A program made the translations under genes and the position numbers. The notes beneath the pieces were generated by a model. It was given only the letters and a program-made list of their open reading frames with translations, was not told the DNA's origin and searched no databases. Below, piece by piece: positions 32,636 to 61,207 of a stretch of 64,000 bases of DNA (positions are counted from its first letter, which is position 1; every line of letters starts with the position of its first letter). Source of the DNA: Nemertoderma westbladi (taxonomy: Eukaryota; Animalia; Xenacoelomorpha); the NCBI GenBank assembly GCA_032718475.1, contig JAUCBJ010009046.1, forward strand, positions 31,896 to 95,895, read 5' to 3'.

Positions 32636-35100
32636 TGGGCATAACTTTATACAGTATAGTGTAATCTTGGACTTACTGTACTGGGTATAACTTTATACAG
32701 TATAGTGTAATCTTGGACTTACTGTACTGGGCATAACTTTATACAGTATAGTGTAATCTTGGACTTACTGTACTGGGTATAACTTTATACAGTATAGTGT
32801 AATCTTGAACTTACTGTACTGGGCATAACTTTATACAGTATAGTGTAATCTTGAACTTACTGTACTGGGCATAACTTTATACAGTATAGTGTAATCTTGG
32901 ACTTACTGTACTGGGCATAACTTTATACAGTATAGTGTAATCTTGGACTTACTGTACTGGGCATAACTTTATACAGTATAGTGTAATCTTGGACTTACTG
33001 TACTGGGCATAACTTTATACAGTATAGTGTAATCTTGAACTTACTGTACTGGGCATAACTTTATACAGTATATTGTAATCTTGAACTTACTGTACTGTAC
33101 TGGGTATAACTTTATACAGTATAGTGTAATCTTGGACTTACTTTACTGGGCATAACTTTATACAGTATAGTGTAATCTTGAACTTACTGTACTGTACTGG
33201 GCATAACTTTATACAGTATAGTGTAATCTTGGACTTACTGTACTGGGCATAACTTTATACAGTATAGTGTAATCTTGAACTTACTGTACTGGGCATAACT
33301 TTATACAGTATAGTGTAATCTTGGACTTACTGTACTGGGCATAACTTTATACAGTATAGTGTAATCTTGGACTTACTGTACTGGGTATAACTTTATACAG
33401 TATAGTGTAATCTTGGACTTACTGTATTGGGCATAACTTTATACAGTATAGTGTAATCTTGGACTTACTGTACTGGGCATAACTTTATACAGTATAGTGT
33501 AATCTTGGACTTACTGTACTGGGCATAACTTTATACAGTATAGTGTAATCTTGGACTTACTTTACTGGGCATAACTTTATACAGTATAGTGTAATCTTGA
33601 ACTTACTGTACTGGGCATAACTTTATACAGTATAGTGTAATCTTGGACATACTGTATTGGGCATAACTTTATACAGTATAGTGTAATCTTGGACTTACTG
33701 TACTGGGCATAACTTTATACAGTATAGTGTAATCTTGGACTTACTGTACTGGGCATAACTTTATACAGTATAGTGTAATCTTGGACTTACTTTACTGGGC
33801 ATAACTTTATACAGTATAGTGTAATCTTGAACTTACTGTACTGGGCATAACTTTATACAGTATAGTGTAATCTTGAACTTACTGTACTGTACTGGGCATA
33901 ACTTTATACAGTATAGTGTAATCTTGGACTTACTGTACTGGGCATAACTTTATACAGTATAGTGTAATCTTGGACTTACTGTACTGGGCATAACTTTATA
34001 CAGTATTGTGTAATCTTGGACTTACTGTACTGGGCATAACTTTATACAGTATAGTGTAATCTTGGACTTACTTTACTGGGCATAACTTTATACAGTAGTG
34101 TAATCTTGGACTTACTGTACTGGGCATAACTTTATACAGTAACAGTATAGTGTAATCTTGGACTTACTGTACTGGGCATAACTTTATACAGTATAGTGTA
34201 ATCTTGAACTTACTGTACTGGGCATAACTTTATACAGTATAGTGTAATCTTGAACTTACTGTACTGTACTGGGCATAACTTTATACAGTATAGTGTAATC
34301 TTGGACTTACTGTACTGGGCATATCTTTATACAGTATAGTGTAATCTTGGACTTACTGTACTGGGCATAACTTTATACAGTATAGTGTAATCTTGGACTT
34401 ACTGTACTGGGCATAACTTTATACAGTATAGTGTAATCTTGAACTTACTGTACTGGGCATAACTTTATACAGTATAGTGTAATCTTGAACTTACTGTACT
34501 GTACTGGGCATAACTTTATACAGTATAGTGTAATCTTGGACTTACTGTACTGGGCATAACTTTATACAGTATAGTGTAATCTTGGACTTACTGTACTGGG
34601 CATAAGTTTATACAGTATAGTGTAATCTTGGACTTACTGTACTGGGCATAACTTTATACAGTATAGTGTAATCTTGGACTTACTGTACTGGGCATAACTT
34701 TATACAGTATAGTGTAATCTTGAACTTACTGTACTGGGCATAACTTTATACAGTATAGTGTAATCTTGGACTTACTTTACTGGGCATAACTTTATACAGT
34801 ATAGTGTAATCTTGAACTTACTGTACTGGGCATAACTTTATACAGTATAGTGTAATCTTGAACTTACTGTACTGTACTGGGCATAACTTTATACAGTATA
34901 GTGTAATCTTGGACTTACTGTACTGGACATAACTTTATACAGTATAGTGTAATCTTGGACTTACTGTACTGGGCATAACTTTATACAGTATAGTGTAATC
35001 TTGGACTTACTTTACTGGGCATAACTTTATACAGTATAATGCAATCTTGAACTTACTGTACTGGGTATAACTTTATACATTATAGTGTAATATTGGACTT
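32636..35100. repeat. 46-bp minisatellite (CTGGGCATAACTTTATACAGTATAGTGTAATCTTGGACTTACTGTA), ~53 copies, near the 3' end of intron 1
   Basis: Direct tandem repeat; each unit reads ACA|GTAAGT on the gene's sense (minus) strand. Confidence 0.95.
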
Positions 35101-35580
35101 ATAAGATTACGTTGTGGAACAAATTTAATTTCGACGGTACAGTGTAGTTACGATTATATATCAGAGACAATAATAAGTGTTACGTAAAGCTGCTATACTC
35201 TGCCTTTGAAAAAGTAATTTATTCTAAAAACTCAAAAGATTTAGGTGTATTATTAAATAATGGAATCATTCACAAGATGAATGAATTAGCTTCACTTGTT
35301 ATGATAACATCTGATATTCAGGGATATATACTTGCTTTCTACTAATTAATCTCATTCTCCAAGATGCGTATTGCACTGCAAGAAATGACAAAATACTGTA
35401 ATAATTTATGCTGTCCCATACAAAGGAACCCCAACTCGTTCTAAGCCATCGATGCATAGATATAAGCGCTATAAAACACTTAATAAAGATAAATTCAAAA
35501 AAAGAAAAAATCTTCATATATAAAATTCCAATAAAAGGTCGACCGAGAAGTGAAATCCTGGTAATCTTCACATGTTGGGC

Positions 35581-35871
35581 GGGTTATTACCAGCTATTAA
35601 GAGCTATCCAATTTTTGCAAAGGCTATCCAACAGTTACCCTATTTTTGCACAGGCTATCCAACAGTTACCCTATTTTTGCACAGGCTATCCAACAGTTAC
35701 CCTATTTTTGCACAGGCTATCCAACAGTTACCCTATTTTTGCACAGGCTATCCAACAGTTACCCTATTTTTGCACAGGCTATCCAACAGTTACCCTATTT
35801 TTGCACAGGCTATCCAACAGTTACCCTATTTTTGCACAGGCTATCCAACAGTTACCCTATTTTTGCACAGG
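35581..35871 (+). repeat. 31-bp satellite array (GCTATCCAACAGTTACCCTATTTTTGCACAG), plus orientation, with conserved head sequence
   Basis: Tandem repeat; same family as the inverted arrays at 36879-37870, 40677-41368 and 45758-46251. Confidence 0.93.
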
Positions 35872-36810: not shown

Positions 36811-36878
36811 TATTAAATGTAAAAATACAATCCCAGACAGCCTTGAGACCATTTTTGACCTTTTTCAATCCATTTTAG

Positions 36879-37870
36879 GTAACTGTTGGATAGCTGTGTA
36901 AAAATAGGATAACTGTTGGATAGCCTGTGCAAAAATAGGATAACTGTTGGATAGCTGTGCCAAAATAGGATAACTGTTGGATAGCCTGTGCAAAAATAGG
37001 ATAACTGTTGGATAGCTGTGCAAAAATTGGATAACTGTTGGATAGCCTGTGCAAAAATTGGATAACTGTTAGATAGCCTGTGCAAAAATTGGATAACTGT
37101 TGGATAGCCTGTGCAAAAATTGGATAACTGTTGGATAGCCTGTGCAAAAATAGGATAACTGTTGGATAGCTGTGCAAAAATTGGATAACTGTTGGATAGC
37201 CTATGCAAAAATTGGATAACTGTTGGATAGCCTGTGCAAAAATAGGATAACTGTTGGATAGCTGTGCAAAAATTGGATAACTGTTGGATAGCCTGTGCAA
37301 AAATAGGATAACTGTTGGATAGCCTGTGCAAAAATTGGATAACTGTTGGATAGCCTGTGCAAAAATTGGATAACTGTTGGATAGCCTGTGCAAAAATTGG
37401 ATAACTGTTGGATAGCCTGTGCAAAAATTGGATAACTGTTGGATAGCCTGTGCAAAAATTGGATAACTGTTGGATAGCCTGTGCAAAAATAGGATAACTG
37501 TTGGATAGCTGTGCAAAAATTGGATAACTGTTGGATAGCCTGTGCAAAAATTGGATAACTGTTGGATAGCCTGTGCAAAAATTAGATAACTGTTGGATAG
37601 CCTGTGCAAATATAGGATAACTGTTAGCTGTGCCAAAATTGGATAACTGTTTGATAGCCTGTGCAAAAATAGGATAACTGTTGGATTGCCTGTGCAAAAA
37701 TTGGATAACTGTTGGATAGCCTGTGCAAAAATTGGATAACTGTTGGATAGCCTGTGCAAAAATTGGATAACTGTTGGATAGCCTGTGCAAAAATAGGATA
37801 ACTGGTGGATAGCTGTGCAAAAATTGGATAACTGTTGGATAGCCTGTGCAAAAATTGGATAACTGCTGGA
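36879..37870 (-). repeat. 31-bp satellite array, minus orientation (~32 copies)
   Basis: Tandem GGATAACTGTTGGATAGCCTGTGCAAAAATW. Confidence 0.95.
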
Positions 37871-39850
37871 CGGTCAGGGCCCTAAACCGATTAGGTTCTC
37901 TGTTCGCAGAACACCGAACACTATTCCGGCCACGGAACTAGTCCAGCAGAATGCCTTTATAGAATCCTGGAATTTGTGGGACGAGAGGATCTCAGCAACT
38001 AAGCGAAAACGAACAATAGGATGTTCCTAGACCCCCCCCCCCCCAAAATTTATCCAGAAGACTTTTCGCCATACATAATGTGTTAAAAAGGTCTACGGTT
38101 CTCCAGCTAGGGCCAATTTGAGTCAAAAAGTCCGCTTCCCTAGCAACCACGTTGCTATGGAGATAAGTCCAGAACCGCTAATGCTACGGACTTGGGACCG
38201 GCGCCAATCGATAGGCAGCATATGGGTTTACCTTCAAGAGATTTTTTTTGGAGCGATCAGATCATAATCTTGACCATGATCAGCAAAGATCAGTTTTGAT
38301 CAGCAATCGGACACTCAAGGCTTGCTCTAATCGAAAAACTTAACATTACAAAAAGATTCAGCGACCCCACATTAGTCATGATTCCCGTTAAAAGATTTAA
38401 AAAAAAGTGAATTCTTCCCGGTCAAAACGCAAGATCATGATCGCGCAAAGATCGGACTTCGTAAAATCGTAACTAAGCATTTTGGATATAAACAATTACT
38501 GTAGGAAACGTTCAGAACACCGCCCTGAGTCGATTAAAAAAAAATTGGCCCGATCGGACAACCGGTTCTCGAGATCTGATACCTGATCATTAAAGATGAT
38601 ATTTTTCGGTTTTTTCAAATTTTCTCGAAAACTTTGTTTGAGACCCCCGATTTTTTTTTTACGAATCGACTTCTATGATGAAGGGGCAACTTTTGAGCAT
38701 TTCGAAATTTTCAAAAAGCGATTTGATCAGGCCGCGATCAGAAAAGATCGTGTTTTCGGTTTTATTTTGAATACCAAGTCCTGGGAGTTCACCGTTTGGA
38801 AAAACTTAACATCACAAAAAGATTCCTCGCCCTCGAATTATGGGGGGTAGCCAAAATTTGGGCATAAAAAAGTTCAAGTCTAGTGGGTCAAAACTCAAGA
38901 TCATGATCGCGAAAAGATCAGTATATTTAAAATCGAATCTAAGCATTTTTCTAATAAACATTCATTGTAAGAAATGTGCAATGGTCTATTCTGAGTTGAT
39001 TAAAAAAAAAATTGGCTCGATCGGGCAACCAGTTCTCGAGATCAGCTTCCTGATCATAAAAGATCGTGTTTTTCAGTTTTTCCCGATTTTCTCTAAAACT
39101 TTGTTTGAGACCCCCGATTTTTTTTTCACTAATCGACTTCTATTATGAAGGGGCAACTTTTGAGCATTTCAAAATTTTCAAAAAGCGATTTGATCACGCC
39201 ATGATCAGGAAAGATCATGTTTTCGGTTTTATTTCGAAGACCAAGTCCTGTAAGTTCACCGTTTGAAAAAACTTAACATTACAAAAAGATTCCTCACCCT
39301 CGAATTAGGGGGGGTAGCCAAAATTTGACCATAAAAAGTTCAATTCTAGGGGGTCAAAAGATCATGATCGCGAAATGATCAGTTTTTTCGAAATTACTTC
39401 TGAGCATTTTGGGGCAAAACTTTCAAACTAAAAAACATTCACTGGAGTGTTCTAAGTAGATTAAAAAAAAATTCGACTCAATAGGCCTACCGGTACCGGA
39501 GATATTGTCGTCCAAAGTCTGCTTCCGGTAATTCGAAAATATTTCGAAAACCCTTGATCGAATTTTTTCCTTGAAAATATGTGAATGTACAATTAGTGGA
39601 CCCGCATCTAACGATATATCACAATCCATATTTCGGATGATAGGTACCGGTGAAATCAGACTTTACCAAAAAAATTCAAATTTTAGCTACTCATGTCTGA
39701 CTATCTCGAAAACTATAATAGGTATGGAAATACTTTCACTGCAAGAAATGTTCGCCTATCCAATGCGCTTCTAACTCTGTGCTCGGATTTTGCATAGTGT
39801 CAAAACCTACAACTTAACCCCCCCAGCGGAGGGAACTGAGTGACCGGAGC
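37871..39850. mobile_element. Probable transposon-derived segment with ~2.5 diverged internal ~466-bp direct repeats rich in GATC motifs
   Basis: AAAAACTTAACAT recurs at 38334, 38800 and 39267; ORFs 38596 and 39066 are paralogous translations of the repeat. Outer boundaries are approximate. Confidence 0.5.
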
Positions 39851-40676: not shown

Positions 40677-41368
40677 CTGGATAGCCTGTGCAAAAATTGG
40701 ATAACTGTTGGATAGCCTGTGCAAAAATTGGATAACTGTTGGATAGCCTGTGCAAAAATAGGATAACTGTTGGATAGCCTGTGCAAAAATTGGATAACTG
40801 TTGGATAGCTGTGCAAAAATAGGATAACTGTTGGATAGCCTGTGCAAAAATTGGATAACTGTTGGATAGCCTGTGCAAAAATTGGATAACTGTTGGATAG
40901 CCTGTGCAAAAATAGGATAACTGTTGGATAGCCTGTGCAAAAATAGGATAACTGGTGGATAGCCTGTGCAAAAATAGGATAACTGGTGGTTGGATAGACT
41001 GTGCAAATTGGATAACTGTTGGATAGCCTGTGCAAAAATAGGATAACTGGTGGATAGCCTGTGCAAAAATAGGATAACTGGTGGTTGGATAGACTGCACA
41101 AATTGGATAACTGTTGGATAGCCTGTGCAAAAATTAGATAACTGTTGGATAGCCTGTGCAAATATAGGATAACTGTTAGCTGTGCCAAAATTGGATAACT
41201 GTTAGATAGCCTGTGCAAAAATAGGATAACTGTTGGATTGCCTGTGCAAAAATTGGATAACTGTTGGATAGCCTGTGCAAAAATTGGACAACTGTTGTAT
41301 AGCCTGTGCAAAAATTGGATAACTGTTGGATAGCCTGTGCAAAAATTGGATAACTGTTGGATAGCCTG
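40677..41368 (-). repeat. 31-bp satellite array, left part, interrupted by the LTR retrotransposon
   Basis: Tandem repeat ending at the GCCTG target-site duplication. Confidence 0.95.
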
Positions 41369-41543
41369 TATAAGATATAAATGTGTCAGTTATTCAAAAT
41401 GTATTAATCCTATAATCATCTAGCACTGTCAGACTACAAACCGCACAATACTGCAATGACCAGAATACCAACCACCACCACAGTTACACTCAGCAGTCAG
41501 CAGCCTATAATAATCCATCCATCTATCTCACACATATCTTATA
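41369..41543 (-). repeat. 3' LTR (175 bp), termini TATAAGATAT…ATATCTTATA
   Basis: Identical to 45583-45757 by eye. Confidence 0.95.
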
Positions 41544-41551
41544 TTCCCCCC
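41544..41551 (-). other. Polypurine tract GGGGGGAA (a second copy lies at ~41584-41591)
   Basis: Directly abuts the 3' LTR on the element's sense strand. Confidence 0.8.
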
Positions 41552-41657
41552 AGTTTGTAAAATAAACTATCTGTGTTCTCATATTCCCCCCAGTTTATAG
41601 TAAACGTATATTTAACACCATGTTCAAGTAAATAGCTCCAATCGATATTTAGCTAAT

Positions 41658-44600
41658 CTAAATCCCATATCTCTCCGGTGGTTTCGAATTTCTCCCCGCT
41701 CGAGTTACATATCCTAACTCCGGAACGACCTCAATATCATTTGCATTACTTCCATCATCTATATTGTCGTTGTCATCATCCTCATTGTAATTCACTGTAG
41801 TGTCATCATCATTTACAGTTTCATCATCTGAACTGTCCGTGTCCATCTCATCTTCAATGTCAATATTCCTGTCAATGTTCCCATTGTATGTCACGTCCAG
41901 TTGGTTACCGACGTGAATCTTTCTAACATCCTGTAGATGATGTCTGATACCCTTTACTACAACCGACCATTCATCTGGAATTTCCTCTACTTCCATTGGT
42001 CCTTTCCACCTTTTGTAGCAACGCCACTTCTGTTCAGGCTTGACGTAAATCAAATCTCCAATTTTATATGGGTTGTCTATTACCTCTCTGTCTTCTAGCA
42101 GCTTTGTTATGCCAGGCAACTTTTCCACTCGTTCACCCATGACTTTCTGAATTGGTGTCTGGTTATCTTTTACTGATGTTCTGTTGTACCAGAATGTAAC
42201 TTGAACTGGATCTTTCTTAGATCTCGACGCCCACGCTTTTATAGTTCGATGCATTCTTTCGACGGGATTTCCCCTAGGTCTGTATGCGCACGAAGGCTTC
42301 AGTTTCACCTCCCATTTATTTAAGAAACTTTTAAACTCATTGCTGCGGAACGCAGGACCATTATCGGGTATAATTTCTTCAGGGGGTCCCCACTCTATAA
42401 ATATTCGCTGTAGAATTTTAACGGCCTGTGCGCTTGTTTTATTAGGCACTTGATTCCAAATAGTAAAATTAGAGCTACAATCAATAACTGTTAGATAACT
42501 GTGAGTCCCATACTCAGAAAAATCAGTAGATAATCTTTGCCAACTCCTATCAGTTTTACAGCTGCCTGGTTTCAGTTTCACTGGTACAGGGTCGATGCTC
42601 TTACATTCTTCACACTTTCTACAAACCTCTTTAATTGCTTCTTTACAATGGTCTGTTACACTGCCTAGATTCCTGTCTGCTTTACATAGATTCTTTAGTC
42701 TATCAGATCCCACATGTACCACTTCGTGTAATTCCTTCACTCTTTCCTCAATGTCCGCATAATCTGCGGTTCCATTGGTCTCTGTAACAGTTACTGCAGC
42801 TACTTCGACTTCTGGTTTTTTTAGCCATTTTTTTGGTATACGAGTTAAACAGTCAGCTCGATTCTGCTCTGATGGAACTAGATGCAAAGTTGTTTTTAAC
42901 TGAAATTCGTCCACAGTTTTCTTGAGAAGTTCCAATCTTCGTCTTATTAACATTTTAGACATTCCCTTAGTGCGAATGCGGTGTTCATCTTTCAGCATTG
43001 CATTTACCCATCCATATACCGGTGCCGAGTCAGTATATAATTGTATTTCTGTTAATTCCCACTGTATTGCCATATTTACCCCTTCAATTAATGCGCTAAG
43101 CTCGGCTGAGTTTATGTGTTCTGGGTCATCGTTTTTACGTAACCATGATCCATCCTCAGCTGTCTGTCCCCCGATTCTCACCATCGCCCCAATGGCCAAG
43201 TTACTAGCGTCAGCCCAAACTTCGCCACGTTTCGTATCACTTATAGGCCACGAACCACCCACTGGATCTGCTCGTTGCACTCGGTTAACCACCTCAACTA
43301 ATTTATCTCTAGTTCCCTTGTCTATTACTGAATCCATTGGAACATTTGCTGCCTGGCGTTGCAGCCAACTCAATGACACTCGCAACCATCCCTCGATCAA
43401 ATAGTTTCCTCGTAATTGTCCTACCACTGATAGCAGTTTTCTATGAGTTAATGGGTTCTCGATCTTTTCTGGGTCTGGAATGTCACTATCTCGTTTCCAC
43501 TTCCCCCCTTCCACAGCGACTCCGAGGACTCTGGCCCCACCTTTAATTTCTATTGCTTCCTTGGTTTCGAGTCCGAACTTTTTAAGATGTTGCCTTACGT
43601 CATCTGCTGTTACACCTGTTTGTAAATCTGCATATATGTCATCCCTAAAACTGTCTGTCGATTCCTTAATTCGATCATTCTGTCCCAGTACTTTTTCTAC
43701 AATAGTATCCAATATTTTGGGTGCCGGGCCCAACCCAAACCCAAGTCTAGTCATGCAGTACCTTTTTCCTTTGTAACTGACTGTTTGGTATGCCTGTAGT
43801 GCCGGTGCTATTCTTATCTGCATGTACGCCCACTTTAAGTCGATTATTGCTGTATTCTCGCCCATTCTTATCCAGTGCCTTAACTTTTCGTTACTTGCTG
43901 CTGCCTCCACCCCTGGTTGCTTTATTAAGTATTCGTTTAATTCTCTAAAATCCATAATGGGGCGCACTCGATCTTTGCGGGGTTCATTTTTATACATCAG
44001 AGGTATCAGTGCCATATAATCACCCTCAAATTCTTGCAACCATCCCTTCTCTATCCACTCTCCTACTCCTTTCTCATACTTGCTACGTAGTTCTGTTGGA
44101 ATATGATATTCCCGTACTGTATTGTTTAGTCTACCTGGTGGAGAGCCAGCTTCGAATTTGTACTCCACTTGCCAATTAGTACCATCGAAAACTGCACAAA
44201 AATCGTCTTTATCTATTCTTAGGATTGGTTCTGTAGTCGTTTTGGCTACTGCTGATACTGACCATTGTCCCCCTGACCCGACACTTACTTCCATTTTACC
44301 GTCGTCTGTTCCTATAAATGAAATGCCGTTGCTTTTCTTTATTAAGTCCCACCCATATATCATATTTAATTCTCCTACTATATGATCAACAACCAAGAAT
44401 TCCCAAACAAACTCCGGCATCCTGTCAATCTGTAACACAGTACTAACCTTTCCTACCAACTGCGTAGCTGTAGACCCGTCTAACATAGTTATGTTTGATT
44501 TATTACCTGGTTCCTCAAATGTTCCATTAATTCTCGCTGCGAACTTCCGCGATAATATACTCCTGCTACACCCAGAATCGACCAATGCTTCCACAAATTT

Positions 44601-44696
44601 CCCTCCACAATTCACATTTTTCGTCGGAAGATCACCGACTTGTCCTCCGGGGAGACGACCGCTGGCACACACGACGCCTCCCCCTATTCGTTTCCC
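41658..44696 (-). CDS. pol: Pol polyprotein (protease-RT-RNase H-integrase), expressed by -1 frameshift from gag
   Basis: LVDSGCS protease; DLKWAY…RLGFGL…FRDD RT; WADAS/ELSAL/YTDS/ADCLTR RNase H; H-x3-H…C-x2-C zinc finger and D..D(NGPAF)..E(RMHRTIK) integrase. Uninterrupted ORF (41658-44726). Confidence 0.95.
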   Translation of the reverse strand, partial: GKRIGGGVVCASGRLPGGQVGDLPTKNVNCGGKFVEALVDSGCSRSILSRKFAARINGTFEEPGNKSNITMLDGSTATQLVGKVSTVLQIDRMPEFVWEFLVVDHIVGELNMIYGWDLIKKSNGISFIGTDDGKMEVSVGSGGQWSVSAVAKTTTEPILRIDKDDFCAVFDGTNWQVEYKFEAGSPPGRLNNTVREYHIPTELRSKYEKGVGEWIEKGWLQEFEGDYMALIPLMYKNEPRKDRVRPIMDFRELNEYLIKQPGVEAAASNEKLRHWIRMGENTAIIDLKWAYMQIRIAPALQAYQTVSYKGKRYCMTRLGFGLGPAPKILDTIVEKVLGQNDRIKESTDSFRDDIYADLQTGVTADDVRQHLKKFGLETKEAIEIKGGARVLGVAVEGGKWKRDSDIPDPEKIENPLTHRKLLSVVGQLRGNYLIEGWLRVSLSWLQRQAANVPMDSVIDKGTRDKLVEVVNRVQRADPVGGSWPISDTKRGEVWADASNLAIGAMVRIGGQTAEDGSWLRKNDDPEHINSAELSALIEGVNMAIQWELTEIQLYTDSAPVYGWVNAMLKDEHRIRTKGMSKMLIRRRLELLKKTVDEFQLKTTLHLVPSEQNRADCLTRIPKKWLKKPEVEVAAVTVTETNGTADYADIEERVKELHEVVHVGSDRLKNLCKADRNLGSVTDHCKEAIKEVCRKCEECKSIDPVPVKLKPGSCKTDRSWQRLSTDFSEYGTHSYLTVIDCSSNFTIWNQVPNKTSAQAVKILQRIFIEWGPPEEIIPDNGPAFRSNEFKSFLNKWEVKLKPSCAYRPRGNPVERMHRTIKAWASRSKKDPVQVTFWYNRTSVKDNQTPIQKVMGERVEKLPGITKLLEDREVIDNPYKIGDLIYVKPEQKWRCYKRWKGPMEVEEIPDEWSVVVKGIRHHLQDVRKIHVGNQLDVTYNGNIDRNIDIEDEMDTDSSDDETVNDDDTTVNYNEDDDNDNIDDGSNANDIEVVPELGYVTRAGRNSKPPERYGI
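44649..44696 (-). promoter_or_regulatory. -1 programmed ribosomal frameshift signal: slippery G GGA AAC plus downstream GC-rich stem-loop
   Basis: Heptamer in the gag frame (CCG GGA AAC GAA TAG). After a 6-nt spacer, GGGGAGGCG (44683-44675) pairs with CGTCTCCCC (44657-44649). pol lies in the -1 frame. Confidence 0.85.
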
Positions 44697-45559
44697 GGCT
44701 TCGTCGTCGGGATGAATGCCACGCACCCTCTCGCTAAATGGTCAGCACCCCCGCATCTAAAGCAACCCGTGTTCGGTTTAACAGTCCCTGTCGCAGTTCC
44801 GCTCTGGTTTCTATTCCCTAAATTTCCTACGTCGCTGTAGCACTCACGCGCAAAGTGGCCGGGTTTACCGCAACGGAAACATCCTGACCCTCTACCCTGA
44901 TCTCCTCCCCGTGACTCCATACCACTGTCCCGTCGCCAGTTCCCTTTATAATCTCGATTCGAATCCGCAGTTGGACGATAATATCCCTTGTTTCCCTGCC
45001 TATCCCCGTATCTCGCCGCCGCCCCTACCAGCTGAGCTTCGCTTCGCTCCGACTCAGACAATAACCGCCTTGCCTGTGCTAACAGTTTACTCAAATCCGT
45101 CTCACCTGCTAACGCCTTCGTCTCGTTTTGTATTTCATCCGGTAGTCCACTCACGAATTGAACCGCCAAGATCTGCTGCGCGCACCTAGATTGAACATCG
45201 CCCCCAGTGACCAACCCTAATAACCTCTTCAGTTCTGCCAGAAACGTATCTGGCGATTCCTTTTCCTTCAGTCGACGCTGTTTGTATTGCTCGAACGCCG
45301 TATATTCGTTGATTGCGAACGCTGTTATCAATGATCGTTTCAGAATATCATAGTCCGCCTTTTCTGCATCCGATAGCTGACTAATTACGTTGTACGCTGC
45401 GCCCTCCATTGACAGTCGCAAGTAGGTTGCCCGCGATTCCTCTTTCAATCCGGCCTCCGCTTTCATCACGTCGTAAGTGTCATCGAACCTCATTAGCCAA
45501 GCAGATGGATCACCCGTACCATTGTACTTTTTAACATAATCCGAAAGTTTCGGAGCCAT
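44684..45559 (-). CDS. gag: Gag with two CCHC zinc knuckles
   Basis: CFRCGKPGHFAREC and CFRCGGADHLARGC; capsid-like N-terminus (YNGTGDPSAWL…QFVSGLP); ATG at 45559. Confidence 0.93.
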   Translation of the reverse strand: MAPKLSDYVKKYNGTGDPSAWLMRFDDTYDVMKAEAGLKEESRATYLRLSMEGAAYNVISQLSDAEKADYDILKRSLITAFAINEYTAFEQYKQRRLKEKESPDTFLAELKRLLGLVTGGDVQSRCAQQILAVQFVSGLPDEIQNETKALAGETDLSKLLAQARRLLSESERSEAQLVGAAARYGDRQGNKGYYRPTADSNRDYKGNWRRDSGMESRGGDQGRGSGCFRCGKPGHFARECYSDVGNLGNRNQSGTATGTVKPNTGCFRCGGADHLARGCVAFIPTTKPGNE

Positions 45560-45570
45560 CACTGCTGCAA

Positions 45571-45582
45571 GCCCGGTTAGCT
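45571..45582 (-). other. Candidate non-canonical primer-binding site AGCTAACCGGGC
   Basis: Occupies the PBS position directly after the 5' LTR and has no TGG; its complement GCCCGGTTAGCT resembles nt 1-12 of tRNA-Lys. Confidence 0.55.
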
Positions 45583-45757
45583 TATAAGATATAAATGTGT
45601 CAGTTATTCAAAATGTATTAATCCTATAATCATCTAGCACTGTCAGACTACAAACCGCACAATACTGCAATGACCAGAATACCAACCACCACCACAGTTA
45701 CACTCAGCAGTCAGCAGCCTATAATAATCCATCCATCTATCTCACACATATCTTATA
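45583..45757 (-). repeat. 5' LTR (175 bp)
   Basis: Identical to 41369-41543. Confidence 0.95.
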
Positions 45758-46275
45758 GCCTGTGCAAAAATTGGATAACTGTTGGATAGCCTGTGCAAAA
45801 ATAGGATAACTGGTGGATAGCTGTGCAAAAATTGGATAACTGTTGGATAGCCTGTGCAAAAATTGGATAACTGCTGGATAGCCTGTGCAAAAATTGGATA
45901 ACTGTTGGATAGCCTGTGCAAAAATTGGATAACTGTTGGATAGCCTGTGCAAAAATAGGATAACTGTTGGATAGCATGTGCAAAAATTGGATAACTGTTG
46001 GATAGCCTGTGCAAAAATTGGATAACTGTTGGATAGCCTGTGCAAAAATAGGATAACTGTTGGATAGCCTGTGCAAAAATAGGATAACTGGTGGATAGCC
46101 TGTGCAAAAATAGGATAACTGGTGGTTGGATAGACTGTGCAAATTGGATAACTGTTGGATAGCCTGTGCAAAAATAGGATAACTGGTGGATAGCCTGTGC
46201 AAAAATAGGATAACTAGTGGTTGGATAGACTGCACAAATTGGATAACTGTTAATACAGTAGCAGGTAATAACCGG
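45758..46275 (-). repeat. 31-bp satellite array, right part, plus conserved head sequence
   Basis: The array resumes in register after the LTR; 46236-46274 resembles the reverse complement of 35581-35615. Confidence 0.92.
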
Positions 46276-47247: not shown

Positions 47248-50200
47248 ACATCTACTGATCTACTAATACAGTAGGACGAGCCAGCCGGGACATCTACTGA
47301 TACAGTAGGTCGAGCCAGCTCGGACATCTACTGATACAGTAGGACGAGCGAGCTGGGACATCTACTGATACAGTAGGACGATCCAGCTGGGACATTTACT
47401 GATACAGTAGGACAAGCCAGCTGGGACATCTACTGATACAGTAGGACGAGCCAGCCGGGACATCTACTGATACAGTAGGTCGAGCCAGCTGGGACATCTA
47501 CTGATACAGTAGGACGAGCGAGCTGGGACATCTACTGATACAGTAGGACGAGCCAGCTGGGACATCTACTGATACAGTAGGACGAGCCAGCTGGGACATC
47601 TACTGATACAGTAGGACGACCCAGCTGGGACATCTACTGATACTACTAATACAGTAGGACGAGAGAGCTGGGACATCTACTGATACTACTAATACAGTAG
47701 GACGAGCCAGCTGGGACATCTACTGGTACAGTAGGACGAGCCAGCTGGGACATCTACTGATACAGTAGGACGAGCCAGCCGGGACATCTACTGATACAGT
47801 AGGACGATCCAGCTGGGACATCTACTGATACAGTAGGACGAGCCAGCTGGGACATCTACTGATACAGTAGGATGAGCCAGCTGGGACATCTACGGATACA
47901 GTAGGACGACCCAGCTGGGACATCTACTGATACAGTAGGACGAGCCAGCTGGGACATCTACTTATACAGTAGGACGAGCGAGCTGGGACATCTACTGATA
48001 CAGTATGACGAGCCAGCTGGGACATCTACTGATACAGTAGGACGAGCGAGCTGGGACATCTACTGATACAGTAGGACGAGCCAGCTGGGACATCTACTGA
48101 TACAGTAGGACGATCCAGCTGGGACATTTACTGATACAGTAGGACGAGCCAGCTGGGACATATACTGATACAGTAGGACGAGCGAGCTGGGACATCTACT
48201 GATATAGTAGGACGAGCCAGCTGTGACATCTACTGATACAGTAGGACGAGCCAGCTGGGACATCTACTGATACAGTAGGACGAGCCAGCTGGGACATCTA
48301 CTGATACAGTAGGACGAGCCAGATGGGACATCTACTGATACAGTAGGACGAGCCAGCTGGGACATCTACTGATACAGTAGGACGATCCAGCTGGGACATC
48401 TACTGATACAGTAGGACGAGCCAGCTGGGACATCTACGGATACAGTAGGACGAGCCAGCTGGGACATCTACGGATACAGTAGGACGAGCCAGCTGGGACA
48501 TCTACTGATACAGTAGGACGAGCCAGCTGGGACATCTACTTATACAGTAGGACGAGCCAGTTGGGACATCTACTGATACAGTAGGACGAGCCAGCTGGGA
48601 CATCTACGGATACAGTAGGATGAGCCAGCTGGGACATCTACTGATACAGTAGGACGAGCCAGCTGGGACATCTACTGATACAGTAGGACGAGCCAGCTGG
48701 GACATCTACGGATACAGTAGGACGAGCCAGCTGGGACATCTACGGATACAGTAGGACGAGCCAGCTGGGACATCTACTGATACAGTAGGACGAGCCAGCT
48801 GGGACATCTACGGATACAGTAGGACGAGCCAGCTGGGACATCTACGGATACAGTAGGACGAGCCAGCTGGGACATCTACGGATACAGTAGGACGAGCCAG
48901 CTGGGACATCTACGGATACAGTAGGACGAGCCAGCTGGGACATATACTGATACAGTAGGACGAGCGAGCTGGGACATCTACTTATACAGTAGGACGAGCC
49001 AGCTGGGACATCTACTGATACAGTAGGACGAGCCAGCTGGGACATCTACGGATACAGTAGGACGAGCCAGCTGGGACATCTACGGATACAGTAGGACGAG
49101 CCAGCTGGGACATATACTGATACAGTAGGACGAGCGAGCTGGGACATCTACTTATACAGTAGGACGAGCCAGCTGGGACATCTACTTATACAGTAGGACG
49201 AGCCAGCTGGGACATCTACTGATACAGTAGGACGAGCGAGCTGGGACATCTACTGATACAGTAGGACGAGCCAGCTGGGACATCTACGGATACAGTAGGA
49301 CGAGCCAGCTGGGACATCTACGGATACAGTAGGACGAGCCAGCTGGGACATATACTGATACAGTAGGACGAGCCAGCTGGGACATCTACGGATACAGTAG
49401 GACGAGCCAGCTGGGACATCTACTGATACAGTAGGACGAGCCAGCCGGGACATCTACTGATACAGTAGGACGAGCCAGCTGGGACATCTACGGATACAGT
49501 AGGACGACCCAGCTGGGACATCTACTGATACAGTAGGACGAGCCAGCTGGGACATCTACTGATACTACTGATACAGTAGGACGAGCCAGCTGGGACATAT
49601 ACTGATACAGTAGGACGAGCCAGCTGGGACATCTACGGATACAGTAGGACGAGCCAGCTGGGACATCTACTGATACTACTAATACAGTAGGACGAGCCAG
49701 CTGGGACATCTACTGATACAGTAGGACGAGCCAGCTGGGACATCTACTGATACAGTAGGACGAGCCAGCTGGGACATCTACGGATACAGTAGGATGAGCC
49801 AGCTGGGACATCTACGGATACAGTAGGACGAGCCAGCTGGGACATCTACTGATACTACTGATACAGTAGGACGAGCCAGCTGGGACATCTACTGATACAG
49901 TAGGATGAGCCAGCTGGGACATCTACGGATACTGTAGGACGAGCCAGCTGGGACATCTACTGATACTACTAATACAGTAGGACGAGCCAGCCGGGACATC
50001 TACTGATACAGTAGGACGAGCCAGCTGGGACATCTACTGATACAGTAGGACGAGCCAGCTGGGACATCTACTGATACTGTAGGACGAGCCAGCAGGGACA
50101 TCTGCTGATACTACTAATACAGTAGGACGAGCCAGCCGGGACATCTACTGATACAGTAGGACGAGCCAGCAGGGACATCTACTAATAGTACTAATACAGT

Positions 50201-52036
50201 AGGACGAGCCAGCCGGGACATCTACTGATACAGTAGGACGAGCCAGCTGGGACATCTACTGATACAGTAGGACGAGCGAGCTGGGACATCTACTGATACA
50301 GTAGGACGAGCCAGCTGGGACATCTACTGATACAGTAGGACGACCCAGCTGGGACATCTACTGATACAGTAGGACGAGCCAGCAGGGACATCTACTAATA
50401 GTACTAATACAGTAGGACGAGCCAGCCGGGACATCTACTGATACAGTAGGACGAGCCAGCTGGGACATCTACTGATACAGTAGGACGAGCGAGCTGGGAC
50501 ATCTACTGATACAGTAGGACGAGCCAGCTGGGACATCTACTGATACAGTAGGACGACCCAGCTGGGACATCTACTGATACTACTAATACAGTAGGACGAG
50601 CCAGCCGGGACATCTACTGATACAGTAGGACGAGCCAGCCGGGACATCTACTGATACAGTAGGACGACCCAGCTGGGACATCTACTGATACAGTAGGACG
50701 ATCCAGCTGGGACATCTACTAATACAGTAGGACGAGCCAGCTGGGACATCTACGGATACTGTAGGACAAGCCAGCTGGGACATCTACTGATACAGTAGGA
50801 CGATCCAGCTGGGACATCTACTGATACAGTAGGACGAGCCAGATGGGACATCTACTTATACAGTAGGACGAGCCAGCTGGGACATCTACTGATACAGTAG
50901 GACGACCCAGCTGGGACATCTACTGATACTACTAATACAGTAGGACGAGCCAGCTGGGACATCTACGGATACTGTAGGACGAGCCAGCTGGGACATCTAC
51001 TGATACAGTAGGACGATCCAGCTGGGACATCTACTGATACAGTAGGACGAGCCAGATGGGACATCTACTTATACAGTAGGACGAGCGAGATGGGACATCT
51101 ACTGATACAGTAGGACGACCCAGCTGGGACATCTACTGATACAGTAGGACGATCCAGCTGGGACATCTACTGATACAGTAGGACGAGCCAGATGGGACAT
51201 CTACTTATACAGTAGGACGAGCGAGATGGGACATCTACTGATACAGTAGGACGACCCAGATGGGACATCTACTAATACAGTAGGACGAGAGAGCTGGGAC
51301 ATCTACTGATACTGTAGGACGAGCGAGCCGGGGCATCTACTGATACAGTAGGACGAGCTAGCTGGGACATCTACTGATACAGTAGGACGACCCAGCTGGG
51401 ACATCTACTGATACAGTAGGACGACCCAGCTGGGACATCTACTGATACTACTAATACAGTAGGACGAGCCAGCTGGGACATCTACGGATACTGTAGGACA
51501 AGCCAGCTGGGACATCTACTGATACAGTAGGACGATCCAGCTGGGACATCTACTGATACAGTATGACGAGCCAGCTGGGACATCTACTGATACAGTAGGA
51601 CGATCCAGCTGGGACATCTACTGATACAGTAGGACGAGCCAGCTGGGACATCTTCTTATACAGTAGGACGAGCGAGCTGGGACATCTACTGATATAGTAG
51701 GACGAGCCAGCTGGGACATCTACTGATACAGTAGGACGAGCCAGCTGGGACATCTACTGATACAGTAGGACGAGCCAGCTGGGACATCTACTTATACAGT
51801 AGGACGAGCGATCTGGGACATCTACGTATACAGTAGGACGATCCAGCTGGGACATCTACTGATACAGTAGGACGAGCCAGCTGGGACATCTACTTATACA
51901 GTAGGACGAGCGAGCTGGGACATCTACTGATACAGTAGGACGAGCCAGCTGGGACATCTACTGATACAGTAGAACGAGCCAGCTGGGACATCTACTGATA
52001 CAGTAGGACGAGCGATCTTGGACATATACTGATACT
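47248..52036. repeat. 34-bp minisatellite (GATACAGTAGGACGAGCCAGCTGGGACATCTACT), ~140 copies
   Basis: Direct tandem repeat with point variants and occasional 9-bp insertions. Confidence 0.96.
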
Positions 52037-52755: not shown

Positions 52756-53229
52756 AATTTGATTAATAATTTATACATTCTATGGATGTTAAAACATATA
52801 AACAACTCTGAGTATCTTTCTGGTTTTCCTCCTTTTATATTATGAATGTTTGAATAGTTCATTATATTACACTCCGTCGTAGCTGGCGCCAGTGTGACAG
52901 ACACACAGACTACACTTTGACAGCTGAACAACATTTCACTACTTATTGTCAACTGGAGTTACGTACATTAATTATATTATTATTGTTCTATTTCTATTCA
53001 GTCAGTTAGTACAAGTTAGTACAGTTAGTCAAGCAGTACATCATTATTATATATCGTATCTAGGGCCTATTGTCCTCGTTATAATACTGTCATCAACTCA
53101 GGCTAAGCTCAATTGTAATGTAACTAGGTTTACTAGGTTTTGTATATTTGGGACGTTTACAACAGTTGTCGATTAAACTAACAAAACCAGAAAACTGAAC
53201 CACGGTGCCAGCCGGTTACCAACGACTGT

Positions 53230-54835
53230 CCATTTGATATCTGGATTGGCGCCACAATGATTCCATTTGATACCTGGATTGGCGCCACAATGATTCCATT
53301 TGATATCTGGTTTGGCGCCACAATGATTCCATTTGATATCTGGTTTGGCGCCACAATGATTCCATTTGATATCTGGTTTGGCGCCACAATGATTCCATTT
53401 GATATCTGGATTGGCGCCACAATGATTCCATTTGATATCTGCTTTGGCGCCACAATGATTCCATTTGATATCTGGTTTGGCGCCACAATGATTCCATTTG
53501 ATATCTGCTTTGGCGCCACAATGATTCCATTTGATATCTGGATTGGCGCCACAATGATTCCATTTGATATCTGGTTTGGCGCCACAATGATTCCATTTGA
53601 TATCTGGTTTGGCGCCACAATGATTCCATTTGATATCTGGTTTGGCGCCACAATGATTCCATTTGATACCTGGTTTGGCGCCACAATGATTCCATTTGAT
53701 ATCTGGTTTGGCGCCACAATGATTCCATTTGATATCTGGTTTGGCGCCACAATGATTCCATTTGATATCTGCTTTGGCGCCACAATGATTCCATTTGATA
53801 CCTGGTTTGGCGCCACAATGATTCCATTTGATATCTGGTTTGGCGCCACAATGATTCCATTTGATAGCTGGTTTGGCGCCACAATGATTCCATTTGATAT
53901 CTGGTTTGGCGCCACAATGATTCCATTTGATATCTGGTTTGGCGCCACAATGATTCAATTTGATATCTGGTTTGGCGCCACAATGATTCCATTTGATATC
54001 TGGTTTGGCGCCACAATGATTCCATTTGATATCTGGTTTGGCGCCACAATGATTCAATTTGATATCTGGTTTGGCGCCACAATGATTCCATTTGATATCT
54101 GGTTTGGCGCCACAATGATTCCATTTGATATCTGGTTTGGCGCCACAATGATTCCATTTGATATCTGCTTTGGCGCCACAATGATTCCATTTGATATCTG
54201 GTTTGGCGCCACAATGATTCCATTTGATATCTGCTTTGGCGCCACAATGATTCCATTTGATATCTGGATTGGCGCCACAATGATTCCATTTGATATCTGG
54301 TTTGGCGCCACAATGATTCCATTTGATATCTGGTTTGGCGCCACAATGATTCCATTTGATATCTGGTTTGGCGCCACAATGATTCCATTTGATACCTGGT
54401 TTGGCGCCACAATGATTCCATTTGATATCTGGTTTGGCGCCACAATGATTCCATTTGATATCTGGTTTGGCGCCACAATGATTCCATTTGATATCTGCTT
54501 TGGCGCCACAATGATTCCATTTGATACCTGGTTTGGCGCCACAATGATTCCATTTGATATCTGGTTTGGCGCCACAATGATTCCATTTGATATCTGGTTT
54601 GGCGCCACAATGATTCCATTTGATATCTGGTTTGGCGCCACAATGATTCCATTTGATATCTGGTTTGGCGCCACAATGATTCCATTTGATACCTGGTTTG
54701 GCGCCACAATGATTCCATTTGATATCTGGTTTGGCGCCACAATGATTCCATTTGATAGCTGGTTTGGCGCCACAATGATTCCATTTGATATCTGGTTTGG
54801 CGCCACAATGATTCAATTTGATATCTGGATTGGCA
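53230..54835. repeat. 33-bp minisatellite (TTTGATATCTGGTTTGGCGCCACAATGATTCCA), ~48 copies
   Basis: Direct tandem repeat; source of several spurious long ORFs. Confidence 0.96.
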
Positions 54836-56574: not shown

Positions 56575-58996
56575 GTGGCATGCAGAATGGCAAAGTACTG
56601 CAGAGTAATTGCGGAATCCGTGGCATGCAGAATGGCAAAGTAACACTGATGCTGCAGAGTAATTGCGGAATCCGTGGCATGCAGAATGGCAAAGTAACAC
56701 TGCTGCTGCAGAGTAATTGCGGAATCCGTGGCATGCAGAATGGCAAAGTAACACTGCTGCTGCAGAGCAAGTGTGGAATCCGTGGCATGCATAATGGCAA
56801 AGTAACACTGCTGCTGCAGAGTAATTGCGGAATCCGTGGAATGCAGAATAGCAAAGTAACACTGGTGCTGCAGAGTAATTGCGGAATCCGTGGCATGCGG
56901 AATGGGAAAGCAACACTGCTGCTGCAGAGTAATTGCGGAATCCGTGGCATGCAGAATGGAAAAGCAACACTGCTGCTGCAGAGTAATTGCGGAATCCGTG
57001 GCATGCAGAATGGAAAAGCAACACTGCTGCTGCAGAGTAATTGCGGAATCCGTGGCATGCGGAATGGGAAAGTAACACTGCTGCTGCAGAGTAATTGCGG
57101 AATCAGTGGCATGCGGAATGGGAAAGTAACACTGCTGCTTGCAGTGTAATTGCGGAATCCGTGGCATGCAGAATAGGAAAGTAACACTGCTGCTGCAGTG
57201 TAATTGCGGAATCTGTGGCATGCGGAATGGGAAAGTAACACTGCTGCTGCAGAGTAATTGCGGAATCCGTGGCATGCAGAATGGAAAAGCAACATTGCTG
57301 CTGCAGAGTAATTGCGGAATCCGTGGCATGCAGAATAGCAAAGCAACACTGCTGCTGCAGAGTAATTGCGGAATCCGTGGCATGCAGAATGGGAAAGTAA
57401 CACTGCTGCTGCAGTGTAATTGCGGAATCTGTGGCATGCGGAATGGGAAAGTAACACTGCTGCTGCAGAGTAATTGCGGAATCCGTGGCATGCAGAATGG
57501 AAAAGCAACATTGCTGCTGCAGAGTAATTGCGGAATCCGTGGAATGCAGAATAGCAAAGCAACACTGCTGCTGCAGAGTAATTGCGGAATCCGTGGCATG
57601 CGGAATCGGAAAGCAACACTGCTGCTGCAGAGTAATTGCGGAATCCGTGGCATGCAGAATGGGAAAGGAAGACTGCTGCTGCAGATAAATTGCGGCATCC
57701 GTGGCATGCAGAATGGCAAAGTACTGCAGAGTAATTGCGGAATCCGTGGCATGCAGAATGGCAAAGTAACACTGCTGCTGCAGAGTAATTGCGGAATCCG
57801 TCGCATGCAGCATGGAAAAGTAACACTGATGCTGCAGAGTAATTGCGGAATCCGTGGCATGCAGAATGGGAAAGTAACACTGCTGTTGCAGTGTAATTGC
57901 GGAATCTGTGGCATGCGGAATGGGAAAGTAACACTGCTGCTGCAGAGTAATTGCGGAATCCGTGGAATGCAGAATAGCAAAGTAACACTGCTGCTGCAGA
58001 GTAATTGCGGAATCCGTGGCATGCGGAATGGGAAAGTAACACTGCTGCTGCAGAGTAATTGCGGAATCCGTGGCATGCAGAATGGGAAAGTAACACTGCT
58101 GCTGCAGAGTAATTGCGGAATCCGTGGCATGCGGAATGGGAAAGTAACACTGTTGCTGCAGAGTAATTGCGGAATCCGTGGCATGCGGAATGGGAAAGCA
58201 ACACTGCTGATGCAGAGTAATTGTGGAATCCGTGGCATGCAGAATGGGAAAGTAACACTGCTGCTGCAGAGTAAGGGGCCGTCCAAGTATGACGTCTGCA
58301 CTTTTCCCCAAAATGTTGACCCCCTCCCTCCCCTAAATCAGATGTCATCAGATAGGCGTTGACCCCCCCCCCCCCCCCCCCCCTCCTAAATCAGATTAAA
58401 AAAAAATTTGTAATAAACTTAATAGTTTATTACAAAAATTTTATTATTTTTTTTTTTTATTATGAAGATGTTTCATTTTCAGGCGAACCCCAGTACCGCA
58501 GTACCCCAGTAGCACGCGTCCTAATCACTGAAACATGGTGACTGGTAACTGAAACAGAAGGTTGTGCTAGGGGCCTTCGGGGGCTTCGAACAATTAAAAT
58601 AGGCAAGCTATTTACTCTTCTGCTATATCTCTTCTAGCACCTATAAATGAACATGCTGACGTCAGATTTTGGCTGACCCCCTCCCCTCCCCTCATCAGCA
58701 CGTCATCAGATTTTCCCAACCCCCCTCCCCCCCTAAAGTGCTGACGTCATACTTGGACGGCCCCTAATTGCGGAATCCGTGGCATGCGGAATGGGAAAGC
58801 AACACTGCTGATGCAGAGTAATTGTGGAATCCGTGGCATGCAGAATGGGAAAGTAACACTGCTGCTGCAGAGTAATTGCGGAATCCGTGGCATGCAGAAT
58901 GGGAAAGCAACACTGCTGATGCAGAGTAATTGTGGAATCCGTGGCATGCAGAATGGGAAAGTAACACTGCTGCTGCAGTGTAATTGCGGAATCCGT
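56575..58996. repeat. 54-bp minisatellite (GCAGAGTAATTGCGGAATCCGTGGCATGCAGAATGGGAAAGTAACACTGCTGCT), ~36 copies, interrupted by a MITE
   Basis: Direct tandem repeat. Confidence 0.95.
58275..58764. mobile_element. PIF/Harbinger (Tourist-like) MITE, 490 bp
   Basis: TIR GGGGCCGTCCAAGTATGACGTC(T/A)GCACTTT at both ends; TAA target duplication (58272-74 / 58765-67) inside a satellite unit. Confidence 0.9.
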
Positions 58997-59436
58997 CAAA
59001 ATTCTTTCAACTTACTGCAGTACCGGTACCAGACAGACAGAGTACAGGAATACTGGCAGTGCAGCAGCTGGCAGGCTTGTTTGGCTGTTTGGTTACACTC
59101 CTTCAAAATTTAAATTTCATTGTTTCAACGCGCGGCGCGCTTACATTATTTGTTGGCACGCGGTTTACTTCGTAATTGCATCGGCGCGGTGGCGCGCATA
59201 AAAAATGGTCGGCGCGCTATCCGGCGCACTTTTTGGATGGATTCCATACAGGAACAGGACTAGACCTACTGCATACTGACGGACAGACGTGTTACTGTCC
59301 TAGTACTGTTCTGCCGTTCTGCCGATACCATACAAGTAGGTACATAGGCCTATCAGCCTACTGGCCTATATGCTATAGGAATACAGGAATAGGCCTACTG
59401 GAATAGGATAGGCGTACTGATATATAGGCCTAAATA

Positions 59437-60384: not shown

Positions 60385-61207
60385 TTGATGTTCTTTGAGT
60401 TGTTTGTTTTCTATATTATAGGCCTATGATTTATTTACATACTACCTAAGTAAAGTGCATTAGAGTTCAGCTACTTGTTAATTAACTATCGGTATTTCGA
60501 ATTTGTTTGTCAGGGTGAAATTATAAATCTCTATCACTATTGCTTGACTTTGTAATGATTTACTTACCACTGGCCCTATTATTATTATTATCTTTATGCA
60601 ATATATATAATGTGCAATTTATTACAAGTATCGTTTTTCTTCACCCAAATATAATGTATAATTAACCATACAATTAAACTGACAACCTGTATCATCATTT
60701 TACTAGTAATTACGTCAGGTGTTACAACCACTTTAAGTCGACATTGCCAACACAATAAGCCCCTTATATTATAGGCTGTCAAGCCCATTGATTAACCAAT
60801 CCAATTGCTCTATTAATGGGTGATGACGTTGTACTTACATCCCATTGGTGTTCCACTGACGTTTTACTTACTGTCTTCCACTATTTTTTCCACTATAATA
60901 TCCACATGCTCTCGCTCTCGCTCTGCTTTAGTTATTGTTGTTTCCTTTACAACGTAATTAAGTATTATCAATAATTTTTCTCCTAACTTCGGTTTCCATA
61001 AAGCCACAAACTATCAACTACGATATTGTTGTTAAAATAATTAAATTAACTGCTAGATTATAGACTTACTATAATTACTTGATGGAGATTATAACAGTTT
61101 TGGTATTTAGTTGTATTTTTTTTATTAATTTCTGTTGCTAAGGGAGATTGATTTCTGGGACAGTAACTGTAACTAATTGTTGATTGATGATGTGGATACC
61201 ATAGAAG

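Follow-up and report, generated by a model that had tools for sequence, protein, structure and literature searches.

The window analyzed here, by which we mean the whole stretch of 64,000 nt (1-64000), consists almost entirely of tandem satellites outside one retrotransposon and one gene (Table 1). The gene is represented by a 316-aa frame matching RNase H2 subunit B, and is predicted from its domain matches to be a host gene lying between satellite arrays. Pfam matches of long open reading frames inside the satellite arrays were rejected as spurious. The minus strand at 41369-45757 carries an intact LTR retrotransposon of 4,389 bp, which is embedded in a 31-nt satellite.

Table 1. Features of the 64,000-nt window and of the LTR retrotransposon within it
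Feature	Position	Strand	Evidence or remark
44-nt satellite	1484-2447		
38-nt satellite	3286-32477		about 750 copies
100-N gap	21075-21174		
46-nt satellite	32636-35101		
31-nt arrays	35611-35871 (inverted), 36876-37870, 40678-46251		
467-nt unit, repeated 2.1 times	38420-39383		85% match
31-nt satellite array split by insertion	40678..46251 (40678-41368 + 45758-46251)	.	tandem repeat
target-site duplication GCCTG, left copy	41364..41368	.	element removal restores satellite unit
3′ LTR, 175 bp, termini TATAAGATAT...ATATCTTATA	41369..41543	-	175/175 identity to 45583-45757
polypurine tract, sense AAACTGGGGGGAA, abuts 3′ LTR	41544..41556	-	sequence
second polypurine copy, 16 nt, 40 nt upstream of tract	41581-41596	-	sequence
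pol frame, stop to stop, 1027 aa: protease, RT, thumb (DUF7047), one RNase H, integrase	41658..44741	-	Pfam, fold
gag CDS, 291 aa, ATG 45559-45557, stop 44686-44684, CCHC zinc knuckles	44684..45559	-	zf-CCHC 2.1e-07
likely -1 frameshift heptamer GGGAAAC in gag/pol overlap	44690..44696	-	ends 3 nt before gag stop
putative primer-binding site, sense AGCTAACCGGGC	45571..45582	-	flush with 5′ LTR, 11 nt upstream of gag ATG
5′ LTR, 175 bp	45583..45757	-	identity to 41369-41543
target-site duplication GCCTG, right copy	45758..45762	.	sequence
34-nt satellite	47258-52035		
33-nt satellite	53229-54834		
54-nt satellite	56598-58274, 58765-58996		
316-aa frame, match to RNase H2 subunit B	59434-60384	+	Ydr279 wHTH 2.2e-11, Ydr279_N 6.1e-07
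27-nt satellite	61202-63095		

The two LTRs form a direct pair without a single difference, and GCCTG flanks the outer ends of both as a 5-bp target duplication; deletion of the element together with one GCCTG copy yields an intact 31-nt satellite unit, GGATAGCCTGTGCAAAAA. The identical LTRs, the open gag and pol frames and the intact target duplication indicate a recent insertion, in agreement with the first-pass annotation of this DNA, which had held that the element transposed recently. The pol frame lies in the -1 frame relative to gag, and this arrangement, together with the classical slippery heptamer GGGAAAC, suggests -1 ribosomal frameshifting. No Rfam match was found within the element.

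The Pfam matches of pol comprise rve (3.4e-11), DUF7047 (3.7e-09), RVT_1, RVT_3/RNase_H and an Asp protease, with the protease at residues 43-108, RT at 256-389, RNase H at 522-595 and rve at 735-822. The CCHC knuckle of gag and the pol order PR-RT-RNase H-IN correspond to the Ty3/gypsy domain order. The usual Ty3/gypsy Pfam signatures (RT_RNaseH and Integrase_H2C2) are absent from the window pol, which has DUF7047, RVT_3/RNase_H and rve instead, and PF17917/PF17919 were found only in the distant pol matches P0058-P0060 (E 1e-8 to 3e-5). In the predicted fold of pol residues 230-700 (mean pLDDT 77, pTM 0.71), RT is followed by a three-helix thumb (model residues 204-261), with which DUF7047 (P0001 residues 432-489) coincides, and by a single RNase H directly after it (266-392), suggesting that the modeled protein lacks the dual RNase H, made up of a degenerate tether domain and a second RNase H, that characterizes retroviruses and Odin elements. 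By sequence, the integrase (P0001 residues 700-843) is nearest, among solved structures, to the MMTV, HTLV (HTLV-2) and RSV integrases. Foldseek against PDB returned only generic RT matches (HIV, foamy virus, CaMV and XMRV), which do not discriminate the lineage, and ESM Atlas gave scores of 0.88-0.90 to mixed families.

A conserved 12-nt sequence at the 5′ LTR junction

Directly inside the 5′ LTR lies a 12-mer that reads GCCCGGTTAGCT on the plus strand (45571-45582) and AGCTAACCGGGC on the sense (minus) strand of the element, and that occurs only once within the 64-kb window. Since an A follows the 5′ LTR and a C, belonging to the target duplication, follows the 3′ LTR, the position of the LTR boundary is unambiguous, with the 12-mer immediately adjoining it. 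The site thus abuts the 5′ LTR directly, with the boundary at 45583, as the first-pass annotation had described. Its statement that no TGG follows the 5′ LTR also holds in the window, where TGG is absent from the first 22 nt past the LTR and first appears in the gag start ATGGCT.

A database search with the pol protein returned 58 relatives at E 0.001 or better (21-38% identity), one of which (P0042) is, by the naming of its source, a hypothetical protein of Trichuris suis. A profile from 15 pol relatives matched 1,970 cluster representatives with E values no higher than 1e-30, and none of the top 150 of these 1,970 exceeded 6e-135. Metagenome contigs, when scanned, yielded 79 loci with a pol 30-40% identical, mostly on contigs of ~4 kb, several of which are circularly permuted (pol, then one LTR, then gag).

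A 12-mer built in the same way (AGCTA-N4-GGC type) stands directly after an LTR-like end on the pol-sense strand of 58 of these 79 loci, with the gag ATG ~0-40 nt after it, and the site starts with AGCTA or CGCTA in the window and in all 58 of these relatives with a visible junction. The remaining loci end before the junction, the gag frame being cut by the contig start in ten and no gag-like frame being present in nine; only the C-terminal part of gag is present in L068, as judged by the position of the CCHC motif. A TGG-type site at the LTR junction was found in none of the 79 loci. The motif singled out by the first-pass annotation is therefore conserved in relatives, apparently also in diverged sister lineages of the same host (see below), and neither a copy nor a relative carries a normal TGG site where the junction is visible. 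On their sense strand, the 79 loci contain the strict pattern AGCTA-N4-GGC 55 times, in 52 cases directly after an LTR-like end; antisense, they contain it 3 times, the expectation from composition being 4.8 per strand; the junction 12-mer exceeds chance.

Information content was scored on 58 sites (57 loci and the window), which represent 53 distinct flank contexts. It amounts to 1.5-1.9 bits at positions -3 to -1, the ACA of the LTR terminus, to 1.8-2.0 bits at site bases 1-5 (AGCTA), to 1.3 bits at bases 6-7, to 0.1-0.7 bits at bases 8-9 and to 1.6-1.9 bits at bases 10-12 (GGC), and is at most 0.3 bits from base 13 onward. Complemented, this profile reads GCC, four variable positions as of an acceptor stem, and TAGCT, which by its sequence is the look of tRNA nt 1-12. 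The base preceding the site is A, which is unpairable with the C that follows TAGCT in these tRNAs, indicating that pairing ends at nt 12, and the sharp drop of conservation past base 12 indicates that pairing also ends at the first nucleotide of the mature tRNA.

The site exists in many variants. About ten loci each carry AGCTATCGCGGC, AGCTATCACGGC, AGCTATCTAGGC and AGCTATTTCGGC; a few loci each carry AGCTATCCCGGC, AGCTATCCGGGC, AGCTAGCCGGGC, AGCTACCTCGGC, AGCTATTACGGC, AGCTAACACGGC and AGCTATCCGGAC; CGCTACCGAGGC is found in L076 and L077; and variants with one or two further changes are present in L001, L011/L023, L031 and L063. In L076 and L077, base 1 has changed from A to C along with the rest of the 12-mer, a co-variation that fits tRNAs with G at nt 12, suggesting that bases 1-2 belong to the tRNA complement and not to an integrase dinucleotide. 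The LTR end was fixed independently by the junctions of three loci, as the 3′ LTR end ...GCTACA of L020 meets unrelated DNA, while AGCTATCTAGGC comes next after this LTR in L026 and L028.

In a quick maximum-likelihood tree built from RT-RNase H (76 rows, 411 columns), well-supported pairs of sister elements differ in their site variants, namely L022/L024 (96), L005/L012 (100), L043/L044 (99) and L052/L077 (93), while the AGCTATCTAGGC elements form one clade. A constant register combined with a changing sequence is the outcome that tracking of host tRNAs, or primer switching, would give.

Several further features of the relatives were observed. The LTR ends are mostly ...ACA, with ATA in L017 and AGA in L010. 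Leaders are extremely short, the gag ATG lying 0-40 nt past the 12-mer in most relatives, and AATAAA is found only 20-45 nt before the LTR end in many of them, indicating that U5 is very short and that the untranslated leader is likewise minimal. The contig of L020 opens (1-40) with unrelated bases, after which no more than the terminal 8 nt of the site are present, and represents either a 5′-truncated copy or a chimeric contig end. In L053, ACA followed by AGCTATCACGGC is found on the strand opposite to the pol match, which suggests a second, inverted element. An extra segment between the 12-mer and gag in L027 (1860-1945) contains a T-loop-like stretch, GGTTCGAACC, and a T-run; as a tRNA or other known RNA this stretch was discarded, since neither Rfam (E 1 or better) nor ARAGORN gave a match.

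The element was also compared with DNA contigs from sequencing runs of the same host. A contig of 4,244 nt from run X1 covers 41369-45612 with two differences, neither of which lies within the site. In a contig of 371 nt, the LTR end is joined to a different flank, indicating at least one further insertion or solo LTR. One diverged contig aligns with the gag start and the site (44/54 letters), ends its alignment exactly at 45583 and continues into a different LTR; another has 5 mismatches and 7 inserted letters over 45536-45590. These two contigs are suggestive, not proof, of sister lineages in the host that keep the site. Run X4 has no cover at the site, and contig depth ratios disagree between runs.

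Complementarity of the site to tRNA 5′ ends

Published human tRNA sequences provide direct counterparts of the complemented site. In the available text of the respective papers, GCCCGGCTAGCTCAG is the 5′ end of human tRNA-Lys(CUU) (PMC12140204), GCCGAAATAGCTCAGTTGGGAG that of human tRNA-Phe(GAA) (PMC10505166) and GCCCGGATAGCTCAG... that of human tRNA-Lys3 (PMC8715211), and each is the complement of one site variant. Three site variants are thus exact complements of nt 1-12 of human tRNAs as published. The same sequences bear out, for human tRNAs, the statement in the first-pass annotation that tRNA-Lys starts carry C or A at position 7. Its central claim, that the 12-mer is the complement of tRNA nt 1-12 and not of the 3′ CCA end, is supported by the conserved register and by these three matches. 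In the literature searched, the complement of the window site, GCCCGGTTAGCT, was not found as a tRNA, the 12-mer appearing in one unrelated paper, and the variants of six other relatives were likewise not found as tRNAs, with hits in unrelated papers only.

The window 12-mer extended by CAG was scanned as a 15-mer in prokaryote genomes, where it occurs at no fewer than 120 loci (at least 120). Among the prokaryote loci listed (at least 120), ARAGORN called 82 tRNAs, 64 of which contain the 15-mer, in 59/64 cases at nt 1. The tRNAs starting with the 15-mer include, among the matches listed, Phe, Thr, Val, Lys and others. The position of the 15-mer at nt 1 in 59 of 64 tRNAs, among the matches listed, indicates that it is a natural tRNA start. 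ARAGORN found no tRNA gene in the 64-kb window and none in the 79 relative loci.

All site variants pair with an A at tRNA nt 9. Some tRNAs carry 1-methyl-G at position 9, and the variants, by pairing with A at this position, would avoid them.

A predicted 12-nt primer and alternative explanations

Based on this complementarity, the likely primer for minus-strand DNA is the first 12 nt of a tRNA, a reading that we consider probable, with a predicted cut between nt 12 and 13. In the proposed mechanism, the zinc-knuckle protein of gag would open the acceptor and D stems, allowing tRNA nt 1-12 to pair with the site; the energy of the 12-bp RNA duplex was computed at -23.1 kcal/mol. The annealed tRNA, a mature elongator tRNA, would then be cut at the end of the duplex, leaving a 3′-OH on nt 12. 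The most likely cutter would be the RNase H of the element itself, acting in trans on the RNA:RNA duplex by analogy with Tf1, and the precedent of the Tf1 RNase H favors such a cut at the duplex end. We know of no nuclease that cuts tRNA in the D-stem. RT would extend the 12-mer through the very short U5 and R, and during synthesis of plus-strand strong-stop DNA it would copy the primer and run off at the physical 5′ end of the tRNA. Such a run-off would fix the site at 12 nt and end its conservation there, and no modified-base stop would be needed. Trimming of two bases by integrase, if it occurs, would place the primer 3′ end within nt 10-12.

In its widest form, for which we see belief and doubt as evenly balanced, the proposal is that a large and old LTR lineage takes nt 1-12 of mature elongator tRNAs, Phe and Lys among them, as its primers, which would be cut out by RNase H in trans after annealing, that run-off at the physical 5′ end of the tRNA determines how long the site is, and that this mode has gone unnoticed because annotation looks only for tRNA 3′ ends.

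The same site and tRNA partner might instead be served by a ready-made short 5′ tRNA fragment that is produced by a host nuclease, packaged and annealed, a route presumed for the half-tRNA of copia. We regard this as unlikely, although the sequence data fit it equally well as an RNase H cut, and although primers of the fragment type have found acceptance in the case of copia-like elements. The products of many tRNA nucleases end in a cyclic phosphate, which is not extendable, and this counts against a ready-made fragment. The sites of C. albicans elements, which match internal parts of tRNA-iMet or tRNA-Arg in the available text of PMC4139406, would be in line with such a fragment, whereas the classes of fragment named in the available part of the review PMC7472051 include none of 12 nt with its end in the D-stem. 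A role of the 12-mer other than priming, such as capturing tRNA for packaging, marking the ends for integrase or controlling translation, with priming taking place elsewhere or otherwise, appears very improbable. The conserved ACA just upstream of the 12-mer would suit such a role, but the 12-mer lies exactly where a primer site must be, and its position defines the LTR end; moreover, the gag ATG follows it directly in L011, L014, L025, L034, L057 and L061, leaving no room for another site, and the co-variation in L076/L077 fits a tRNA complement.

Self-priming in the manner of Tf1, in which the 5′ end of the element transcript folds back onto the site, is extremely improbable in our judgment. 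It would agree with the lack of TGG and with the length of the site, 12 nt being close to the 11 nt of Tf1; however, primer-like stretches do not exceed 5 nt in the window LTR, and within the 150-400 nt upstream of the sites of 47 relatives their maximum is 4-7 nt, and here too the first-pass annotation, which had seen no complement in the LTR for this kind of self-priming, was right. The LTR-to-site duplex reaches -18.5 kcal/mol compared to -14.9 ± 2.3 kcal/mol for shuffled sequences, 7% of which reach -18.5, and the tRNA-like TAGCT and GCC would not be kept family-wide if the partner were the element transcript. The least probable of the explanations considered is a displaced canonical site, TGGCTCCGAAAC, 22 nt downstream, pairing with a tRNA 3′ CCA end. 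The window does have ATGGCTCCGAAACTTTCGG at the gag start, but this candidate (TGGCTCC...) consists of the gag start codon and first codons and is not conserved in relatives, and it was rejected; furthermore, a site 22 nt from the LTR would not yield the observed LTR end, and such a site is impossible in relatives whose ATG touches the 12-mer.

Relation to known modes of priming

Three ways of starting reverse transcription in LTR retroelements are textbook knowledge: the tRNA 3′ end, an internal half-tRNA and self-priming. The literature searched, which included few subscription journals, describes in its available text priming from tRNA 3′ ends, internal tRNA regions, self-priming, a polypyrimidine site and a hairpin site; no site for tRNA nt 1-12 was found in it, and an older description is possible. 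A 5′ tRNA fragment reported in PMC11962134 matches Gypsy sites only through acceptor-strand complementarity, with no priming described.

The closest parallel to a primer consisting of tRNA nt 1-12 is offered by Tf1, whose transcript, according to the available text of PMC7175516, anneals to the site with its own first 11 nt and is then cleaved by RNase H between nt 11 and nt 12. Like Tf1/Tf2, the self-primed Ty3/gypsy elements of Schizosaccharomyces pombe, the element described here has no TGG site and would use a short primer (12 nt compared to 11 nt) taken from the very first nucleotides of an RNA, with the length of the site bounded by the RNA 5′ end, and it shares the order PR-RT-RH-IN. 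Unlike in Tf1/Tf2, the partner would be a tRNA-like 5′ end and not the own transcript, and a host RNA would be cut in trans.

Half-tRNA priming is known from the Ty1/copia elements copia, Ty5, 1731 and Osser; the copia primer is about 39 nt long, and its site matches an internal tRNA region. Priming from tRNA nt 1-12 would resemble this mode in that the primer would come from the 5′ part of a tRNA rather than from the 3′ CCA end, and in that tRNA cleavage would be required. It would differ in that the site matches nt 1-12, so that the whole primer would be paired, and in that the matched tRNAs are the elongator tRNAs Phe and Lys, whereas half-tRNA elements use initiator tRNA-Met or tRNA-Arg. 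Judged from the Phe and Lys matches at nt 1-12, a site for the anticodon-arm region of initiator tRNA-Met, as is typical of copia and Ty5, was not found here. Also unlike Ty1/copia elements, in which integrase precedes RT, the integrase of this element is C-terminal.

As in canonical priming by tRNA 3′ ends, which is used by retroviruses and most LTR elements, a host tRNA would pair next to U5 and the site variants shift between relatives; in canonical systems, related elements differ in site variants through primer switching, as described in the available part of PMC7472051. In contrast to canonical priming, the opposite end of the tRNA would be used, TGG is lacking, and the 12-nt site would be bounded by the tRNA 5′ terminus and not by a modified base. 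With Odin retrotransposons and lokiretroviruses the element shares a retrovirus-like pol from invertebrate-type sources. Odin retrotransposons have a dual RNase H, and PBS or tRNA is mentioned 0 times in the available text of their description (PMC9040795); unlike in Odin, one RNase H is predicted directly after the RT thumb of the element.

If the proposed priming is true, a family-wide site for the 5′-terminal 12 nt of elongator tRNAs would constitute a fourth start mode, and would link tRNA priming to the mechanism of Tf1, in which an RNA 5′ end is released by RNase H. It would also explain in simple physical terms why the site has its length, and would imply tRNA cleavage after nt 12, a step for which no enzyme has been described. 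With tools restricted to tRNA 3′ ends, such elements would be wrongly labeled as lacking a primer site, and they would presumably escape silencing by the 3′ tRNA fragments that target canonical sites.

Two further features concern the LTR ends of the element. The LTRs have the ends TA...TA (TATAAG...CTTATA), compared to the usual TG...CA. In addition, AAACTGGGGGGAATAT, which comprises the polypurine tract and the first three LTR bases, is present twice, 40 nt apart, on the minus strand at 41541-41596 of the window, and the upstream copy is followed by GAGA where the LTR has AAGA. This doubled polypurine tract may have arisen by duplication, or may be left over from aberrant plus-strand priming.
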